From: Chiloscyllium plagiosum | Taxonomy: Eukaryota | Assembly: GCF_004010195.1 (NCBI RefSeq) | Contig: NC_057718.1 | Coordinates: 64,857,548-64,921,547 of the forward strand | Direction of reading: 5' to 3' | DNA: 64,000 bases | Shown: piece after piece, positions 3,988-58,230 of the stretch | Layout: each line of letters begins with the position of its first letter | Position numbering within the stretch: position 1 is the stretch's first letter | Notes under the pieces: generated by a model | What the model was told of the DNA's origin: nothing | Database searches by the model: none | What the model saw: the letters and a program-made list of their open reading frames with translations, nothing else | Position numbers and translations under genes: made by a program

Positions 3988-5899
3988 CTGCGAAAAGAAA
4001 GTCGATAGATCAATTGGAGCAGTTGATGCAGAATTAAAAAATAAAGTTCTATTGCGCAAGTCTTTCCAACGTGTTGTTCAACAGGACATTATTAAAGATT
4101 AGTATTACAGACATGGACTACATTGCATAAGTGCCAGACTAATTGTAGGAACTTCACATGCAGATTGACAGTAAAGGCTTGAATTGTGAAATATACTTCT
4201 TTCATAATCTCTTGTGACAGGTTTCAGATTTAATATATTTCTGAGTGCTGCAAATTCTTTTCTGCTGGAACCCTTCGTAATTCTTCTGACCCGGGCCACC
4301 TGATTACTGATTACCATAAATTACTGATTACCATCTCATTATGATTATCACCTCATTACTTTTGCACACAGTATACTTTGGACTGAAAAAAATTTAACTA
4401 TGTCTAATATTTTTCAAGGAGAAAAGCTTACAAATCATCATGTGTTCACTCACTGACATGGCAGCCTTAATGATTGTGACACAGTTTACTAATAAATGCC
4501 TAGAATTGGTGAGTCTGAGCATTGTTATTATTTGTATGGCTGGGGAAGCAATTTTAGTTCAATGTCGGGTTAACAATCCAGGAATCCCTGACGAGCTCCT
4601 GACTTCATTGTAATGCATATAGAGTAATGTTGAGATGTATTTTAATGATCAATGGCTTCAGCTATGTGACTGCTTGTGACAAAGCAACTAATCAACTCAT
4701 ATATTCGAGGACCATCCTACAATTTGCTCTTTTGCCCCGTGCTCCAGTTCAGGCCTTTCCCGGTGTCCCAGATCACTAGTATCTTGGCAAGCTTTTACCT
4801 TATGCATGCATTGGGTATAGCACCATGCTGCGTTGTGTAGAAATCTCTTTCTCTTTATTCTTATTATTTCCTTAATTTTTAAGATTTATAATTTAATTAG
4901 TTCCACTGTTAATTTGGTATTCCTTTCCTCCCTGGTGCTGTTTTTCTGTTTCTGGATTGGGAAAACTGGTACATAATAAATATTTAATATTTTGCTATTT
5001 TTGATTTACATTACACTATCACCCATGCCCCTCTTAAAGGGGCCTATATTCTATTAATACATTTGTTAAAAAAAATTGTATTGTTCATAATATTCCTCAA
5101 TTATTTTTTGTTTTATTCCCTTATCACTGCAGTCCATTTCTTTGGTCTGAAATTTTCCAGGTCTAGAGTGACGTAGGCAATGGCATGACAGTTAGGAAAT
5201 TACAGCAAGATCAGAAAAATGTGATATATAATGAGATACAGATTGTCCACATAATGGATGAATGAATTACTGCCACTTGTACTCTACAATGAACAACATA
5301 ATAAAATACAGTGAAAAGCTTCTACTGCTGTTACAATCCGGCACCATTTGAACATTTTAAGAATGAAAAGATAAAGCTGAAAGAAGGTCCATTTTCATTC
5401 TGCTACCTCCACCATGAGTCCTGAACCCTAAGCCGGCTGACCAATGAAACCTCTACTGTCACCTGCACTGGACCCACTAACATTGGAGTTGCCACTTTTC
5501 AGGCTCCATCTCTTCATTGCTTGGACCACTTTGCCAACAGCTGCCGATGCCGGGTCCCATGCTGGACCCACACTCAACCTGCAACCAGGAGACTCTGACT
5601 CTGCTGCCACTGACCCGTCACTGATAACCAGGCGTCCTGCTTTGGGCTTACCACAACCAGGAGCCCCTAGCTCCACTGCCGTCTCACCGATAACCAGGAG
5701 ATCCTGGCTCTAGGCCTATCACAGCATAAGGTTTCAATGGTGAGATGAGAATCTTGTAAGTGAGCAGAGAAGTTCTTATTTGTATGCATTTAGATTTCAC
5801 GGTTATCTAATATGACATCATTTATATAAAGGTTGCTATTTTCCCATGCAGCAGAGAGAAACTAAAGGGTGCCAAGTTGTTGCAACTGCAGGTTGGCAG

Positions 5900-6471
5900 A
5901 GGTTGGCATTGGCCAAGAACCAGCTTTACAGTGACACACACACCTTCCATCTGCAGAGGTTGGCATTAGCCAAGAACCAACCTTACAGTGGCACACACCC
6001 CTTCCGTTACAGAGGTTGGCATTGGCCAAGAACCAATCTTACATTGACACACACCCCTTCCATCTGCAGTGGTTGGCATTGGCCAAGAACCAACCTTACA
6101 TTGACACACACCCCTTCCATCTGCAGAGGTTGGCATTGGCCAAGAATAAGTCCTACAGTAATACACGCACCTTCCATCCACAGGGGTTGGCATTGGCCAA
6201 GAACCAGCCTTACAGTGACACACACCCCTTTCATTTGCAGAGGTGGCATTGGCCAAGAATTAGCCCTACAGTGACACACAGCCCTTCCATCAACAGAGGT
6301 TGGCATTGGCAAGAACCAGCCTTACAGTGGCACACACCCCTTCCATCCACATGGGTTGGCACTGGCCAAGAACCAGCCTTACAGTGGCACACACCCCTTC
6401 CATCCACAGGGGTTGGCATTGGCCAAGAACCAGTCTTACAGTGTCACACAGCCCTTCCATCCACAGGGGTT
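5900..6471. repeat. Minisatellite, ~10 tandem copies of a 56-57 bp unit (AGGTTGGCATTGGCCAAGAACCAGCCTTACAGTGACACACACCCCTTCCATCTGCAG)
   Basis: Unit starts at 5900, 5957, 6013, 6070, 6127, 6184, 6241, 6297, 6353, 6410; no unique spacers. Confidence 0.95.
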
Positions 6472-17105: not shown

Positions 17106-18249
17106 AATTTGTTCCTTCATTTTAATTTGATTTATCCCTCTACCAAAATTTCAAAGGCTTAAGATGTTTGTTGATACTCTTCTTTCTGTCTTGTAGGACA
17201 ATGTGGTGCACATCCAGAAGCAACAATTCATAGTCAGGGGGAGTCAGAGCTGCTTATTCTGACTCCAAGAAGAAGACAGTGCTTGATATCATTGAAGTTG
17301 ACATGACTGAAGCTGAAACCATTTATCTTGAAGGTATCCCATAGTTAACCTCTTCTTCCTCCTCCTCCTCCTCCTCCTCATCCTCATCCTCATTGCACAA
17401 TCCCTTCTGCTGGTGGTGTTTCCACTTGTGGGACAGTCCAGGACTAGAAAGCATTGTTTTAAAATTACGGCTCACCTCTTTCAGGACAGATTTGAGAATA
17501 TGCTTTTTTCACTAATGGTTATGTCACTTTGGAACTGGTGCTTCAGAAGGAAGTAGGGGTGAGGTTATTGAATATTTTTAAGACAGATTTGGATAGCTTC
17601 TTGTTAGGCAGGGGATTCAAGAATTATTGGGGGTAAATGGAAATGTGGAATTTGAAACACCAATAGATGATTTTATTGAATGGGGAATAGGCTCTAGGGG
17701 CCAAATGATCTACATTTGTTACTATTTTAGATGTTTGTATGACTTATTCCCATCTCTCTTACCACAACAATCCCTGCTGCCTTCCTTCTTTCAGTTATCC
17801 AAGAACTGCAACCTGACCAGGCAGCAATAGAAGCAAAAATATTGGAGTGAAGGAAAATAACAATGAAGAGGAAACACCATCGGTGCTTTAACACTCACAG
17901 ACACCTGCTCACATACTGACAATATACTATACAGGATGGCTTAGTGGTGAGGTCTGCACATTGTGAGACATTGTACAAGAGTGGCCTACGGCCAGGATAG
18001 AATAAGGGTAGCACATATTGCAGCTCAAAGGAGTGGAATGCCATACAAACTTCTGCTGTTATAGACCCAAATAAGGACATTGAGGGTTTGGCCTATACAA
18101 GAAGGCTACTGGTTACTGAAATAACTGCACAGTGACTGGTATCCTGTCACCAGGTCACCCTTTCTTTACGTATGCACAGTACACTGGCTGTGGCCAGCCA
18201 TCTCAGGGTCAGTCACCTGAAATGGAGGGATTCTAATCTGCTGATTATA

Positions 18250-20816
18250 TTTTTTGTACTTTTTTATTCAAAGCTTACATAGATTACAGTGTCAGACACA
18301 ACACATAACATCATTCACAACACATCGAGAACAAATCCCTGAAAATGGATACATTGACAAAGAACATTCTACAGAAGAACATCTCTGTTTAAACAGTAAA
18401 TTTATGTCCACATTAGACAACAGTGCCGTGAACACGACACATGGCGCAAAAGCACATTGCATTATAAACAGTAAGTTCCAAGTTCACATAAAGTTACAGT
18501 GTCTCAAACACGATATATGGCAAAGGCACTATACATCAGACAATTTACTGAAAAGCAGAAGCATTAACACAACACATTGTGCAGAAGCATATCTCATATC
18601 AATCAGTAGCACAAAGTTTACAGACAAACACACATTCCCCAGGGCTGTTGGTCGGCCTCCACACAGACCAAACCTATTGGTTGGGCCAGCTCTCCAGGGC
18701 TTACGCAGAGGCACAGTCCAAACACATTCAGAGTCCAACCATAAAGGCAGAGTCTGCACAGACAATACATAATTCGCACATAAGGGCATGGTCCACACCA
18801 GCATGTTAGTCCACCCGCAAGGACATGGTCCACTGAAATGGCATGGTAATCACACAAAGGCATAATGCAAACCCATAAAGGCTCAATCCATATATAAAGA
18901 TTCAGTCCAGTACCCACATACAAAAACAGCAGCTCAGAGGCTGGGTCCCATTATCAAATCATCCTTCAATTCATTAGTTCACACAATACACTGGCTGTGA
19001 CCGGCCAGCTCAGAGCCAGTCACCTGAACTGCAGAGGTTCAAATCTCCTGGTTATATTTATTTTTCTCAGTACACTGGCTGTGGCCAGCCAGATCAGAGT
19101 CGAGATTGTGGGTGCTGGAAAAGCACAGCGGGTCAGGCAGCATCCAAGGAGTAAGAGAATCGATGCTTCAGGCATAAGCTCTTCATAAGGAATGAGGCTT
19201 GTGAGCCAAGGGGGCTGAGAGATAAATGGGAAGGAGAGGGGATGGGGAGAAGGTAGCTGGGAATGCAATAGGCAGATGGAGGTGGGGGTGAAGGTGATAG
19301 GTCAGAGACGAGGGTGGAGCAGATAGGTGGGAAGGAAGATGGACAGATAGGACAGGTCATGAAAGTGATGCCGAGTTGGAAGGTTGGATCTGGGATAAGG
19401 TGGGAAGAGGGGAAATGAGGAAACTGGTGAACTCCACATTGATGCCATGTGGTTGGAAGGATCCCAAAGCAGAAGATGTGTTCTTCCTCCTGGCGTTGGG
19501 TGATTAGGGTGTGGAAATGGAGGAGGCCCAGGACCTGCATGGTCCTTGGCGGAGTGGGAGGGAGAGTTGAAGTGTTTGGCCAAGGGCCGGTGGGGCTGAT
19601 TGGTGCTGGTGTCCTGGAGATGTTCTCTGAAGTGCTCTGCAAATATGCACCCTGTCTCTCCAGTGTAGAGGAGACTGCTTCAAGAGCAACGGCTACAGTA
19701 AATGACTTGTGTGGAAGTGCAGGTAAAACTCTGATGGATGTGGAAGGTCCTTTGGGGCTTCGACGGAGCTGAGGGGGGAGGTCTGGACACAGTTTTTGAA
19801 ATTCCTGCGGTGGCAAGGGAAGGTGCCTGGCACGGGAGTTGCAGAGGGAATGGTCTTTATGGAAAGCGGATAGGGGTGGAGAGGGAAATATAACTCTGGC
19901 GGTGCAGTCTTGAACTGAGGAGATTCTAATCTCCTGGTTATATATTTTTTTGAAGATTCTCCATCTGCTGTTATATTTTTGTTTGCTTCCCCACCCCCTC
20001 CCTCCACACTTCTGCCATACAGCAGTAGTGCTCATATTCTATACAACCCTATTTTTGTGTGTGCAGGTGCAGGATACAGTGAAAAACACCAAGTGAAAAT
20101 AACTTTATGAATATTCCACCACAAGTAAAGGCACATGTGAGGCCAATGAACCAGTGACAAGCAAAGCCCACAGCGAGCAAAGCTTATGTGAGAAAAGCAA
20201 AGGGGAGGGTAGTGATTAAATCAAAATAGAATTGGAGGGGAAAAAAATCACTCCATTCCGGATGATGTCCACCTCTCTCCTGGTTTTATATGTGTCCAGT
20301 GACAAGCTGTGCCTCGTTCCTTTTGGGCAAAGCCTGCATGAACAAAGAAGTGAAGGGGAGGATAGGGGTTAACTCAAAGTAGAGTTGAAGGGGGAAGCAA
20401 AGCAGTCTATGCCCTGTGGTGCCCACCTCTCCTGAAGATCTGTCTTGGTTTTTTTTTGTGTTTTGGTTTGCTTTTCCCTGAAATGAGGAAATTCTAAATT
20501 CCCTGTTTACATATTTTTCTTTTTATTTCTAATCTCCGAGTTATATATTTTTTAATCCTCTGGGTTTTTTTGTGTTTATTTTTTCTTGTGTGTGCAGGTG
20601 TCTGACACAGTGAAAACCAACAAGTGGGTAAATCTTTATTTATGCACCACCACCAAGAAGAAAGGAAACATCCGAGTGGCCAGTGACAGGCAGTGCCCTT
20701 CTCAGAGGGCAATGCTGCGTGATCAAAAAAATGAAGGGGAGGGTAGAGGTTAAATCAAAATAGAGTTGGCAGGGGAAACAAAGCAGTCCATGCCCCTTGG
20801 TGACTACCTCTCCCTG
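18250..20816 (-). mobile_element. Stack of 5'-truncated poly(A)-tailed retrotransposon 3' ends (L1/Tx1-like)
   Basis: Each unit begins with poly-T after ctggttatat-like DNA; 20756-20817 minus encodes FRER*SPRGMDCFVSPANSILI*, and ~20370-20436 encodes ERWAPQGIDC, resembling a Tx1-type ORF2 C-terminus; 20040-20280 and 20580-20810 are homologous 3' UTRs. Confidence 0.65.
19091..19905 (-). mobile_element. 5'-truncated Penelope-like element (GIY-YIG end + terminal repeat)
   Basis: AKHFNSPSHSAKD, MQVLGLLHF...EEEHIFCFGIL; same family as 9479-12172; decayed hammerhead at ~19157-19195. Confidence 0.85.
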
Positions 20817-21301
20817 AAGATCTGTCCTGGTTATATTGGCCCATGTTAATAACCCCAATCAACTACCATATAGTCAACGAGATCAATCTGGCTCAAATCA
20901 CTATAGTTGCGTACACTGAAATAATCGGTACAATGGCAAGTTTGCCAGAAAACAATGTCAAGGAGGTTGGAGGAGTCTGTACCAACTTGGCAAAGGACTT
21001 TTCATTGATCTTCAACCCTACCCTTTCAAATATGGAACTGGTAGTCACTTCCATTGTCATACTTGTGAAGCCCACCATGAAGCAATGTCTTGTGGCCAAT
21101 GTCACAACTTCCATTGTAGTACAAACAGCTTCCAACAGTTTGAATGGAGTCTGAGAGTGCTGTCTTGCAAGCTTAAGAGTTCTGCCTTCATGTGTCTCTA
21201 TGTCATTGGTCAAAGTGATTTGATTCAGATGGATTACCTTGTGGTCTGATTGATAGTGGATCTGTGGATAATGAAGCTACCCCCTCAGACACAGACTCCC
21301 T

Positions 21302-22271: not shown

Positions 22272-23337
22272 TTTAGGGTGTTGGTTTGCTCGCTGAGCTG
22301 TAGGTTTGATATCCAGATGTTTCATTACCTGGCTAGGTAACATCATCAGTGGCCACCTCCAAGTGAAGCGAAGCTGTTGTCTCCTACTTTCTATTTATAT
22401 GTTTGTCCTGGATGGGGTTCTTGGGGTTTGTGGTGATGTCATTTCCTATTCGTTTTCTGAGGGGGTGATAGATGGTATCTAGATCTATGTGTTTGTTTAT
22501 GGTGTTGTGGTGGGAGTGCCAGGCCTCTAGGAATTCTCTGGCATGTCTTTGCTTAGCCTGTCCCAGGATAGATGTGTTGTCCCAGTCGAAATGGTGGTTT
22601 TTTTCCTCCGTGTATAGGAATACAAGGGAGAGAGGGCCGTGTCTTTTTGTGGCTAGCTGGTGTTCGTGTATCCTGGTGGCTAACTTTCTTCCTGTTTGTC
22701 CTACGTAGTGTTTGTGGCAGTCCTTGCATGGAATTTTGTAGATGATGTTGGTTTTGTCCATGGGTTGTACTGGGTATTTTAAGTTTGTTAGTTTTTGTTT
22801 GAGAGTGTTGGTGGGTTTATGTGCTACTAGGATTCCGAGGGGTCTTAGTAGTCACCTATACAATGTATTCAAGAAAAATGGATACTCAAAAAATACAGTG
22901 CGCAGATTCCTCAGGAACAAACCACGACAAGCAGACCAAACACAGCCAGAAACCCTAACCACCTTACCATACATCAAAGAAGTTTCAGAAATGACAGCCA
23001 GACTACTAAGACCCCTCGGAATCCTAGTAGCACACAAACACACCAACACTCTCAAACAAAAACTAAAAAACTTAAAAGACCCAACAAAACCAACGTCATC
23101 TACAAAATTCCATACAAGAAATGAACAGGAAATGACATCACCACAAACCCCAGGAACCCTATCCAGGAGAAAGATATAAATAGAAAGCAGGAGACAACAG
23201 CTTCGCTTCAATTGGAGGTCACCACTGATGATGTTACCTAGCCAGGTAATGAAACGTCTGGATATCAAACCTACAGCTCTGTGAGCAAACCTACACCCTA
23301 AACCTCAACCTGAGCTACAAACCTTCACAAACCTTGC
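22272..23337. mobile_element. Penelope-like element (family B), two divergent 3' portions forming an inverted structure, inserted in an older minus-strand LINE end
   Basis: Minus: IYKIPCKDCHKHYVGQTGRKLATRIHEH...AREFLEAWHS (GIY-YIG). Plus: VFKKNGYSKNTV...TLPYIKEVSEMTARLLRPLGI. Near-TSD atgatggcaatt 22262-22273 / atgatggaaatt 23338-23349. Confidence 0.9.
23222..23261 (+). ncRNA. Minimal type-I hammerhead ribozyme motif (PLE family B)
   Basis: cca-CUGAUGA-u-GUUACC uagcca GGUAAU-GAAAC-GUC-ugg; the inverted twin at 22313-22352 has GUC>AUC. Confidence 0.75.
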
Positions 23338-28859: not shown

Positions 28860-30378
28860 AGAGTCATAGAGTCATAGAGATATACAGCATGGAAACAGAC
28901 CCTTCAGTCTAATCCGTCCACGCCGACCAGATATCCCAACCCAATCTAGTCCCACCTGCCAGCACCCGGCCCATATCCCTCCAAACCCTTCCTATTCATA
29001 TACCAATCCAAATGCCTCTTCAATGTTGCAATTGTATCAGCCTCCACCACATCCTCTGGCAGCTCATTCCATACACGTACCACCCTCTGTGTGAAACAGT
29101 TGCCCCTTAGGTCTCTTTTATATCTTTCCCCTCTCACCCTAAATCTATGCCCTCTAGTTCTGGACTCCCCAACCCCAGCGAAAATACTTTGTCTATTTAT
29201 CCTATTCATGCTCCTCATAATTTTGTAAACCCCTATAAGGTCACCCCTCAGCCTCCGATGCTCCAGGGAAAACAGCCCNNNNNNNNNNNNNNNNNNNNNN
29301 NNNNNNNNNNNNNNNNNNNNNNNNNNNNNNNNNNNNNNNNNNNNNNNNNNNNNNNNNNNNNNNNNNNNNNNNNNNNNNNNNNNNNNNNNNNNNNNNNNNN
29401 NNNNNNNNNNNNNNNNNNNNNNNNNNNNNNNNNNNNNNNNNNNNNNNNNNNNNNNNNNNNNNNNNNNNNNNNNNNNNNNNNNNNNNNNNNNNNNNNNNNN
29501 NNNNNNNNNNNNNNNNNNNNNNNNNNNNNNNNNNNNNNNNNNNNNNNNNNNNNNNNNNNNNNNNNNNNNNNNNNNNNNNNNNNNNNNNNNNNNNNNNNNN
29601 NNNNNNNNNNNNNNNNNNNNNNNNNNNNNNNNNNNNNNNNNNNNNNNNNNNNNNNNNNNNNNNNNNNNNNNNNNNNNNNNNNNNNNNNNNNNNNNNNNNN
29701 NNNNNNNNNNNNNNNNNNNNNNNNNNNNNNNNNNNNNNNNNNNNNNNNNNNNNNNNNNNNNNNNNNNNNNNNNNNNNNNNNNNNNNNNNNNNNNNNNNNN
29801 NNNNNNNNNNNNNNNNNNNNNNNNNNNNNNNNNNNNNNNNNNNNNNNNNNNNNNNNNNNNNNNNNNNNNNNNNNNNNNNNNNNNNNNNNNNNNNNNNNNN
29901 NNNNNNNNNNNNNNNNNNNNNNNNNNNNNNNNNNNNNNNNNNNNNNNNNNNNNNNNNNNNNNNNNNNNNNNNNNNNNNNNNNNNNNNNNNNNNNNNNNNN
30001 NNNNNNNNNNNNNNNNNNNNNNNNNNNNNNNNNNNNNNNNNNNNNNNNNNNNNNNNNNNNNNNNNNNNNNNNNNNNNNTGCCAACCTCCAGTCTTCCAGC
30101 ACCTCCCCTGTGACTATCGATGATACAAATATCTCAGCAAGAGGCCCAGCAATCACTTCTCTAGCTTCCCACAGAGTTCTCGGGTACACCTGATCAGGTC
30201 CTGGGGATTTATCCACCTTTCAAGACATCCACCCTTTCAAGAGAACCAGCACTGCCTCCTCTGTAATCTGGACATGTTGCAAGATGTCACCATCTATTTC
30301 CCTACAGTCTATATCTTCCATGTCCTTTTCCACAGTAAATACTGATGCAAAATATTCATTTAGTATCTCCCCCATTTT
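28860..30378 (-). mobile_element. Young CR1 LINE (HER1-like), spanning an assembly gap
   Basis: DKSPGPDQVYPRTLWEAREVIAGPLAEIF; ESRTRGHRFRVRGERYKRDLRGNCFTQRVVRVWNELPE; (AGAGTCAT)n tail. Confidence 0.92.
29279..30078. other. Assembly gap (800 N)
   Basis: Run of N inside the CR1 copy. Confidence 1.
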
Positions 30379-35174: not shown

Positions 35175-36372
35175 GTTGGAACAGTTCATCCACTTCACCA
35201 ACACCTTCCACCCCGACCTCAAATTCACCTGGACAGTCTCAGATTCCTCCCTCCCCTTCCTCGACCTTTCTATTTCTATCTCAGGCGACCGAATCAACAC
35301 GGACATCTACTACAAACCGACCGACTCCCACAGCTACCTGGACTACACCTCCTCCCATCTCTTCCACTTCCCGCTCCTCCGCCCTTGAGCCCCGCCCCTC
35401 AAACCGCCACCAGGACAGAACCCCACTGGTCCTCACCTACCACCCCACCAATCTCCATGTATAGATCATCATCCGCCGTCATTTCCGCCACCTCCAAACT
35501 GACCCCACCACCAAGGATATATTTCCCTCCCCTCCCCCATCAGTCCTCCATAAAGACCACTCCCTCCGTGACTCCCTCGTCAGATCCACACCCCCCACCA
35601 ACCCAACCTCCACTCCCGGCACCTTCCCCTGCAACCGCAGGAGGTGCAAGACTTGCGCCCACACCTCCCCCCTCACCTCCCTCCAAGGCCCCAAAGGAAA
35701 CTTCCATACCCGCCACAGATTCACCTGCACCTCCACACACATCATCTACTGCATCCTCTGCACCCGATGTGGCCTCCTCTATATTGGGGAGACAGGCCGG
35801 CTACTTGCGGAGCGCTTCAGAGAACACCTCTGGGACACCCGGACCAACCAACCCAACCACAACCAACTCAACATTTCAATTCCCCCTCCCACTCCACTGA
35901 GGATATGCAGGTCTTTGGACTCCTCCATCGCCAGACCACAACAACACGATGGTTGGAGGAAGAGCGCCTCATCTTCCGCCTAGGAATCCTCCAACCACAA
36001 GGGATGAACTCGGGTTTCACCAGTTTCCTCATTTCCCCTCCCCCCCCCTTGTCTCCGTCAAATCCATCGAATTCAGCACCGCCTTCCTAACCTGCAATCT
36101 TCTTCCCGACCTCTCCGCCCCCGCCCCAGTCTGACCTATCACCCTCACCTTGACCTCTTTCCACCTATCGCATTTCCGACGCCCCTCCCCCAAGTCCCTC
36201 CTCCCTAACTTTTATCTTAGCCTGCTGGACAAACTTTCCTCATTCCTGAAGAAGGGCTTATGCCCGAAACGTCGATTCTCCTGTTCCCTGGATGCTGCCT
36301 GACCTGCTGCACTTTTCCAGCAACACATTTTCAGCTCTGATCTCCAGCGTCTGCAGACCTCACTTTCTCCTC
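35175..36372 (+). mobile_element. Young 5'-truncated Penelope-like element (RT thumb + GIY-YIG + terminal repeat) inserted in an old CR1-group LINE (~34830-36585)
   Basis: EQFIHFTNTFHPDLKFTW...LPFLDLSI...DIYYKPTDSHSYLDYTSSH; CTRCGLLYIGETGR; WLEEERLIFRLGILQPQG; CpG-rich. Confidence 0.92.
36241..36280 (+). ncRNA. Minimal type-I hammerhead ribozyme motif (PLE family A)
   Basis: cauuc-CUGAAGA-a-GGGC uuau GCCC-GAAAC-GUC-gauuc. Confidence 0.7.
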
Positions 36373-46189: not shown

Positions 46190-46770
46190 AGAGACCTTGG
46201 AGTGCAGGTACATAGCTCCATGAAAGTGAAGTCGCAGGTAGGTAGGATAGTGAAGAAGGCGTTTGGTATGCTTTCCTTTATTGGTCAGAGTATTGAGTAC
46301 AGGAGTTGGGAGGTCATGTTGTGGCTGTACAAGACATTGGTTAGGCCACTGTTGGAATATTGCGTGCAATTCTGGTCTCCTTCCTATCGGAAAGATGTTG
46401 TGAAACTTGAAAGAGTTCAGAAANNNNNNNNNNNNNNNNNNNNNNNNNNNNNNNNNNNNNNNNNNNNNNAGTCCAGAACTAGAGGGCGTAGGTTTAGGGT
46501 GAGAGGTGAAAGATATAAAAGAGACCTAAAGGACAACATTTTCACACAGAGCATGGTGGAATGAGCTGCCAGAGGAAGTGGTGGAGGCTGGTACAATTGC
46601 AACATTTAAGAGGCATTTGGATGGGTATATGAATAGGAAGGGTTTGGTGGGATATGGGCCGGGTGCTGGCAGGTGGGACTAGATTGGATTGGGATATCTG
46701 GTCGGCATGGACAGGTTGGACCGAAGGGTCTGTTTCCATGCTGTACATCTCTATGACTCTATGACTCTAG
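46190..46770 (+). mobile_element. Young 5'-truncated CR1 LINE (contains a 46-N gap at 46424-46469)
   Basis: LYKTLVRPLLEYCVQFWSPSYRKDVVKLERVQ; tail ctctatgactctatgactcta; same family as 28860-30378. Confidence 0.92.
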
Positions 46771-56602: not shown

Positions 56603-58230
56603 ATTTCTTTATTCGCTCAATAGTGTGGGCTTTGCTGGCTGATCCAGCATTTCAGGACCATCCCTAACTGCCATTAAGAAGGTAGTGGTGAGTTTCCTTC
56701 TTGAACCCCTGCAGTCCATTTTTCTTAATTTCAAAAATATACTTTATTCATAAAAGTATTTGGATATCTATGCAATCGGTCATGCTATTCTTGTGCACAC
56801 ATTACATTGCTTTACATACAGACATTGAAATTTATTTTTCCTATATACAAGTCTGTACATTTACTATCTAGCTCTATCTAGCTACTATCTAGAGTCAGCA
56901 GAGCCCAAATGACTGGGTGGGCCCCCTGTTCTTCTTAGGCAGGCAGATGTTACACGGTGGTCTTTCCCCACTGCGCCTGGGCGGCAGCTGCCCCAAGCTT
57001 CAGCATGCCCCTCAACACGTAGTCCTGGACCTTGGAATGTGCCAGTCTGCAACACTCAGTTGGGGTCAACTCCTTAAGCTGGAACATCAACAGGTTTCGG
57101 ACCGTCCAAAGAACGTCTTTCATTGAGTTGATGATCTTCCAGGCACAGTTGATGTTCGTCTCGGTGTGTGTCCCGGGGAACAGACCGTACAGCACGGAGT
57201 ACCACATTACGGCGCTGCTCGGCACGAATCTCGACAAACATCATTGCATTCTTATCCAGACTTCTTCTGCATAGGCACATTCCAGAAGGAGGTGTTGCGA
57301 AGGATGGGCCTGGCCTCGATGACACGGAACGCTCCAAGTAGTTGGACCGTTCCGTGTCACCTGTCCTTTGTGGAGAAGTTTATGAAGGAAAACACCTTTG
57401 ACCACAAGTTCATCAGGAAGTGGACAGCATGTGTTGTCCTTGAGACCCTTCGGGAAAAGGAGAGGGTGGATCCTATTGAGCAGTTCCCTGAGCAGACTGT
57501 CAAAGTCATTTGGCAGAATGCCTCATCGCCAGAACTTTCCAACAAGCATCAAGACATGGCTTGGCTGGTGGTGAGAAGGGCTCTGCCTGGGAGATCCTTT
57601 ATGCACACCCGGACTCTCTGCACCACCGCATGCTGCCCTCGAAGCGGCTGCAGGGGGACGAGGCTGAACCCCTGCAGTCCATTTGATGCACAGTGCTATT
57701 ACGCAGGGAGCTCTAAGATTTGGACCCAGGACACTGAAGGAATGCTGATATATTTCAAGGTCAGGATGGTGACAGGCTTGGAAGGGATCTTGTAATTGGT
57801 GGTATTCCCATATATTTGCTGTCCATGTCATTCTAGATGGACGAATCGTCTAGATCGCAGTTTGGAAGATTCTGAGTAAGGACCCTGGGTGAGTTTCTGT
57901 ACTGCATCATGTAGATGGTGCACACTGTTCCAAGTGAGCATCAATGGCAGGAGGGAATGAATCTTTATGGGTGTGGTGCCAATCAAGTGGGCGCTTTTGT
58001 CTTGGATGGTGTCAAGTATTTTCAGGGTTGTTGGAGCTACACTCATCCAGACACATGTGGAGTATTAAACACATTTCTAATTGTGCCTTGCAGATGGTGT
58101 ACAAACTTTTGGTGAGGAGGTGAGTTACTTGGTGCAGAATTCCTAGTCCCTGACCTATTCTTGTAGCCACACTATTTATGTGGGTAGACCAATTCAGTTT
58201 TTAGTCAATGGTAGTCGCCAGGATTGATCA
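56603..58230 (-). mobile_element. CR1-group LINE 3' portion (host of the L1/Tx1 insertion)
   Basis: APTTLKILDTIQDKSAHLIG, homologous to 2380-2460; continuous across the 20-bp TSD. Confidence 0.8.
56722..57664 (-). mobile_element. L1/Tx1-clade LINE, 5'-truncated with 5' inversion
   Basis: Minus 56722-57295: HLLLECAYAEEVW...LFPGTHTETNINCAWKII...WGKTTV*, 3' UTR with AATAAA. Plus 57291-57664: upstream ORF2 ending CPRSGCRG (CCHC finger). 20-bp TSD 56702-56721 / 57665-57684. Confidence 0.88.

Follow-up and report, generated by a model that had tools for sequence, protein, structure and literature searches.

In a 64,000-nucleotide stretch of repeat-rich vertebrate DNA from the shark Chiloscyllium plagiosum (hereafter the window), a short unit resembling the long terminal repeat (LTR) of a retrotransposon is split into two halves, and the space between its outer ends (18117–20905) is filled with motif copies and with 3' tails resembling those of long interspersed nuclear elements (LINEs). 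The explanation that we prefer, and hold with moderate confidence, is repeated target-primed LINE insertion at one preferred base in this short solo LTR. Accordingly worded as a mechanism, the solo LTR would have been hit repeatedly by 5'-truncated, poly(A)-tailed LINEs of L1/Tx1 type at a preferred base just 5' of a TATA-like motif. The endonuclease would nick the strand that reads 5'-CCTGGTTATAT-3', the end thus released would prime on the A-tail of the RNA as in the established LINE model, and a second nick 12–76 bases downstream would copy the motif, leaving a fresh and intact target each time. What we infer in this scheme is the enzyme and its clade, as well as the sequence of events and how far the specificity extends across the genome.

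All cargo and motif features lie on the minus strand, and the array is read here in that direction, from 20905 downwards, with motif copies labelled T1–T9 plus T8b. It starts with the first 69 bases of the LTR-like unit (its 5' part, 20837–20905), which are directly joined to T9 (20813–20836, 12 bases of which are certain). Tail A (20571–20813) follows, with the end of an open reading frame (ORF; ...SPANSILI*), a 3' untranslated region (UTR) containing AATAAA, and an A-rich tail; it belongs to a very abundant family. Next come the degenerate T8b, T8 (20 bases), and T7 (35 bases), separated only by A-runs (20477–20570), then an A-rich spacer and T6 (20431–20476), where the junction is as at T9, and tail B (20292–20431), which runs from ERWAPQG to a stop, totals 140 bases, and lacks its 3' half. 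Behind T5 (20276–20291, about 14 bases, no preceding A-run) lies tail C+X (19977–20277), composed of an ORF-end-like start, a 3' UTR, an extra 75 bases (X), and an A-run, and representing a separate dispersed subfamily. T4 and the A-run next to it (19944–19976) form a 33-base tandem period with T3 (19911–19943), the best preserved copy. The partial LTR copy starting at T3 is interrupted by a Penelope-type fragment (19093–19910), a later insert that does not lie at the motif, and ends with 25 LTR bases at 19068–19092 (88–96% identity to two other copies). An A-run spacer without other cargo (19058–19067) leads to T2, where 76 bases of the LTR body are duplicated (18982–19057), to the 730-base tail (18251–18981), which has AATAAA and an A-run, is low-copy, and is unrelated to tails A–C, and finally to T1 with the remaining 3' part of the LTR (18117–18250), which is at multi-copy depth.

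An earlier note on this DNA had listed nine copies of the motif, and six of these match the 14-base sequence TATAACCAGGAGAT within three mismatches. In 300 dinucleotide shuffles, matches averaged 0.10 and never exceeded 2, and the rest of the window has 0.29 in stretches of equal length; because the query comes from within the array, one match is there by construction. The other three (19957–19976, 20438–20450, and 20492–20514) can be aligned only with gaps or decay, and a tenth, degenerate copy (T8b) was found at 20550–20570. The copies start within about 2 bases of one common position. Also in agreement with the earlier note, which had seen a T-run on the forward strand beside every copy except two, A-rich runs (70–80% A) precede 8 of the 10 copies and are absent at 20291 (T5) and 20836 (T9). 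At the latter, the outermost junction, LTR sequence passes straight into the motif. Motif copies of 12–76 bases flank the cargoes as target-site duplications (TSDs), close to the range of about 12 to 70 bases first proposed. The T2 duplication shows 82.9 +/- 4.3% identity to its counterpart at T1 (18175–18250), and four spacers consist of A-runs only.

Two separate duplications (18982–19057, and 19068–19092 together with 19911–19943) have nearly coincident ends in the LTR, some 76 bases away from the motif; this common end point reflects either a preferred second nick or the derivation of one copy from the other. At 5560–5720, three or four loose copies of a unit of about 45–55 bases contain (A/C)ACCAGGAG, and one of them, on the plus strand, differs from the 14-base motif by no more than 1 mismatch; no A-tails or LINE ends adjoin these copies. 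The motif-like matches at 5580–5700 were not accepted as further targets, as they belong to this separate short repeat.

The cargoes are of different kinds. Three of them (tail A, tail C+X, and the 730-base tail) point the same way and finish in an A-rich run that abuts a motif copy. A 3' poly(A) tail and 5' truncation, which are traits of all L1-type elements, are both seen. To estimate copy number and detect paralogues, we used reads and contigs from four public runs (X1, X6, X14, and X19; 4 of 21 listed). Tail A reaches a depth of about 2650 in X19 at 20654–20757. Tail C shows 77.0 +/- 2.9% identity to tail A and has its own 5' junction, the X extension has no counterpart in tail A, and paralogous contigs from three runs carry C and X without a break (20004–20230, 20016–20244, and 20026–20244; 16–21% difference). 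As a correction to the earlier note, 19977–20050 belongs at least partly to tail C. The unrelated segment of about 730 bases described in that note was confirmed, with no similarity elsewhere in the window; its depth in X19 is 0–2 across 18262–18885, paralogous contigs at 18446–18642 were found in X6 and X14 (about 15% difference), and a Pfam search of nine local frames gave 0 hits and hence no recognisable ORF. Dispersed relatives exist for both C+X and the 730-base tail, neither of which has a local source, so local duplication cannot explain them. Tail A, tail C+X, and the 730-base tail together indicate at least three independent insertions, and the suggestion that more than one LINE family had used the site is borne out by three distinct tail types, two of them with dispersed relatives.

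Tail B is different. It shows 80.1 +/- 3.4% identity to tail A, the two agree at 23 sites as against 10 and 10 for the other pairs (132 columns of A, B, and C), and they share a 5' junction over 25 bases (88%). Judging from these alignments, tail B may be a duplicate of tail A that lost its 3' half later. The cctgaa sequence shared at this junction, which had been read as microhomology, is present, but 25 shared bases at 88% fit duplication equally well. The four A-only spacers could be abortive insertions or products of slippage or later local duplication. Because B is sister to A with a shared 5' junction, and because four spacers hold A-runs only, the nine motif copies need not represent nine insertions. 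The proposal that the target was refilled repeatedly is supported as same-orientation retroposition at one site, but not as nine independent events.

With respect to the host, the two outer halves total 203 bases and lie between GTTAC (18112–18116) and GTTGC (20906–20910), a putative 5-base target duplication. The two flanks match at 4 of 5 positions, which is weak alone (P = 0.016 for a single boundary, rising to about 0.06 when four choices are allowed). The unit has a 3' CA, begins with TA instead of TG, and carries the TATA-like motif inside. In 104-base bins, the depth of its 3' part is about 340–360 in X19 versus 0 in the left flank, and the 5' part (20837–20905) lies above the flank in all four runs. 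Both halves are at high depth and the flanks are single-copy, as is expected of a dispersed multi-copy unit with sharp ends. No LTR internal region was found within the 64-kb window, and a search of viral contigs with the LTR pattern gave 0 matches. The unit is probably a solo LTR, possibly of Gypsy type. The earlier description of an LTR-like unit of about 200 bases holds in its length; the 5-base TSD and the 5' TA are less convincing.

Under the criterion of Kojima (2015), a Tx1 family is target-specific when >20% of its flanks contain the same target. In favour of preferred-site targeting are the motif excess, the three cargo types ending on the motif in one orientation, the unbroken C+X of paralogous contigs with no X in tail A, the 730-base tail with its paralogue and no likeness to tails A–C, the T9 junction, which has no A-run and is not TTTT/AA, the end of another L1/Tx1-type family at 56733 on unrelated sequence (n = 1), and the crocodilian precedents described below. 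Several points weigh on the other side. The evidence comes from one locus, and the distance between tails A and C (77.0 +/- 2.9%) is not clearly above that between the T1/T2 duplicates (82.9 +/- 4.3%). Duplications of 76 bases are long for this class of elements. No joint between a tail 3' end and the motif is present among the 15 joints listed (1778 more exist), and no tail-to-motif link among the 12 listed rows with intervening letters (767 more); varying A-tail length would split such joints, so their absence is mildly adverse. The 24 loose-end rows listed for the flanks of other tail copies were filled by Penelope reads (6633 more). The depth of the A-type tail is about 2.9 times that of the LTR ends in raw reads, a ratio that would fit LTRs carrying some three tails each, as this one does, but equally a large number of off-target copies; the depth of the LTR is a minimum, given the age of the query copy and a filter set at 80%. 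Protein searches with a query of 20–26 residues found no ORF2 relative. A joint in X14 from 20778 to 19038 was not counted as a motif-to-tail junction elsewhere, the ORF end being loosely motif-like.

L1-driven inserts can nest in A-tails, and a less likely explanation is that the LTR was only a hot spot: a loosely specific, abundant LINE would have hit it once, and later inserts would have nested into the A-tails. Each such insert would duplicate the A-run and some downstream bases, yielding the same products as site-specific insertion except at the first junction. The roughly threefold greater depth of the tails than of the LTR ends, the lack of tail-to-motif joints among the rows listed, and the A-rich run before 8 of 10 motif copies are all compatible with nesting. 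However, the first junction (20836) has no A-run and is not a TTTT/AA site, the copies start within about 2 bases of one position, and the LTR depth is only a lower bound. As the main cause, one or two insertions followed by local tandem duplication or slippage from A-runs appear quite unlikely, although local duplication is likely a partial contributor (tail B and the A-only units). Consistent with such a contribution, tails A and B are sisters (23 versus 10 and 10 sites) with the 25-base junction in common (88%), their identity (80.1%) points to about the same age as that of the T1/T2 pair (82.9%), T3 and T4 form the 33-base tandem, four spacers are A-only, and T2 and T3 have the same extent of roughly 76 bases. 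On the other hand, it would leave unexplained the 730-base tail and the X extension, with their dispersed relatives and no local source, and the separate 5' junction of tail C. It is also improbable that the 200-base unit is some other short dispersed repeat, in which case site targeting would stand with a different host. Its 5' TA, the match of only 4 of 5 flanking bases, and the blanks for an internal region in the window and for viral contigs would suit such a repeat, whereas the multi-copy halves edged by single-copy flanks, the terminal CA, the TATA-like motif, and the near-match of the 5-base flanks suit an LTR better.

It had also been proposed that the insertions disable the LTR promoter. 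This was not upheld: the TATA-like motif is duplicated rather than broken, with one copy still adjoining the 69 upstream bases (at 20836) and another leading into the downstream body of the LTR (at 18250). Since the cut falls immediately 5' of the TATA-like motif, which is itself duplicated, the upstream 69 bases keep a TATA directly before the inserted LINE. Judged from this arrangement, a full-length LINE could be transcribed from the LTR in its presumed sense direction, which is taken from the TATA-like motif only. A more speculative possibility, to which we give little weight, is that several unrelated shark LINE lineages converged on the base upstream of the LTR TATA, capturing the promoter instead of destroying it, with lineage-specific duplication lengths (about 76 versus 12–35 bases). 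An insert in the LTR sense direction would then duplicate the TATA and the start-site bases, and a full-length copy would come to lie behind an intact promoter. If true, promoter capture would explain the choice of this site. Transcription from a flanking target is raised as a possibility for SINEU, and R2 is discussed too, in Kojima (2015; PMC4494074). We found no demonstration of LINE transcription from an LTR promoter in the literature covered, which mostly excludes subscription papers.

To investigate the identity of the LINEs, we examined the ORF ends. Tails A and B close a frame with ERWAPQG-like and SPANSILI*-like peptides, which may be the end of a Tx1 ORF2. The peptides named in the earlier note are thus present in the sequence, but their Tx1 identity found no confirmation in protein searches, whose queries comprised only 20–26 codons of the ORF end, so that blanks are weak. 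A contig of X14 joins a B-type start to a C-type end via 29 letters with the frame open, giving weak support to a genuine ORF end. With these short queries, one search returned 1 candidate and none scored, 1.84 billion proteins yielded 2 matches, both spurious repeat proteins, and no tail-like C-terminus was detected among 33 retrieved proteins. None of the 22 and 9 proteins reached through the other L1/Tx1-type element of the window has a tail-like end. Five metagenome loci matching the tail 3' pattern were dismissed as chance matches confined to the 23-base pattern. Rfam gave 0 matches in the window, and hence no small nuclear RNA (snRNA) head on the array elements. That other element (56733–57630; zf-RVT family) has its 5' part inverted relative to its 3' part and shows 84% identity to a Hemiscyllium protein and 61–75% to proteins of other sharks and a ray; its end at 56733 on unrelated sequence is the single control mentioned above.

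An assembly artefact was ruled out by contig matches in X1 together with orthologous contigs in two other species. Contigs of X1 match 17950–18204, 18175–19101, and 20732–21050 with 0 differences and 20215–20676 with 3 differences and 1 gap; no single contig among the pieces listed spans the whole array. Orthologous contigs of organisms B and C (1.4–5.8% different) cover the left flank, the 730-base tail, and the B-to-A region and also cross T7/T8/T8b (20477–20570), and the right junction is covered in organism B. Thus, the array is old, fixed, and common to three species at the tested junctions. The difference of 17% between T1 and T2 implies that their insertion long predates the split of the compared species. 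Organism C apparently lacks about 148 bases of the 730-base tail (18339–18486) at the orthologous locus.

The Penelope piece of about 820 bases (19093–19910), which the earlier note had missed, splits one partial LTR copy. It shows 72–80% identity to dispersed copies in the window, and other LTR copies bridge its site, with joints from 19068–19092 to 19905–19914. A Pfam search of this copy gave no match, and a paralogue at 35465–35980 (72–79%) matched GIY-YIG with an E-value of 1.7e-4 and 22.3 bits, against a curated cut-off of 22.6. The Penelope insertion is later than the LINE tails and followed an unrelated route. Elsewhere in the window, Penelope-like ORF pieces lie in an inverted arrangement at 22272–23302 (184 bases at 92%), a 57-base unit forms a tandem array of about 10 copies at 5897–6471 (86% match, with open frames running through), and assembly gaps (846 N in total) lie within CR1-like repeats at about 29280–30090 and at 46420–46470.

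The principle of such targeting is already published; the present locus, old and decayed, contributes anatomical detail but not an enzyme. In the literature covered, from which subscription papers are mostly absent, we found neither a shark case nor a TATA-adjacent site. Tx1-8_Crp and Tx1-4_AMi of the crocodilian Tx1-Mar group prefer LTR retrotransposons (Kojima 2015; PMC4494074); the main text of that paper leaves the LTR family and the insertion site unnamed. The preference for an LTR is the same, but these elements are crocodilian, whereas here a shark LTR carries several tail types at one base. The same source describes SINEU-3 elements inserted in tandem with a TSD between them, and several families that occupy fixed sites in Mariner-N4_AMi. 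The array resembles them in its stacked poly(A)-tailed elements, which hold a fixed position and orientation in another transposon and share a site. It differs in that they insert into a Mariner DNA transposon, where the TSD is 16 bases long, while no snRNA head was found here with Rfam. Tx1L of Xenopus laevis, which has a sequence-specific apurinic/apyrimidinic (APE) endonuclease, inserts in Tx1D and likewise is a LINE landing in another transposon (PMC1950540, PMC6719617, PMC1919474); its target is a piggyBac-type DNA transposon and its specificity was proven biochemically, whereas the array holds fragments without an endonuclease. Human L1, with its consensus 5'-TTTT/AA-3' (PMC1950540), has in common with the array poly(A) tails, 5' truncation, variable TSDs, and microhomology at 5' junctions, but the first junction here is not TTTT/AA, and two duplications reach about 76 bases. 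By analogy, the stack would work like Tx1-Mar/SINEU targeting. If so, one more natural APE endonuclease with sequence specificity would join the few on record, and LTR targeting by Tx1-type LINEs, so far described in crocodilians, would reach cartilaginous fish and have a defined target base. The locus illustrates how duplication of the target restores the landing site and allows different families to accumulate there.

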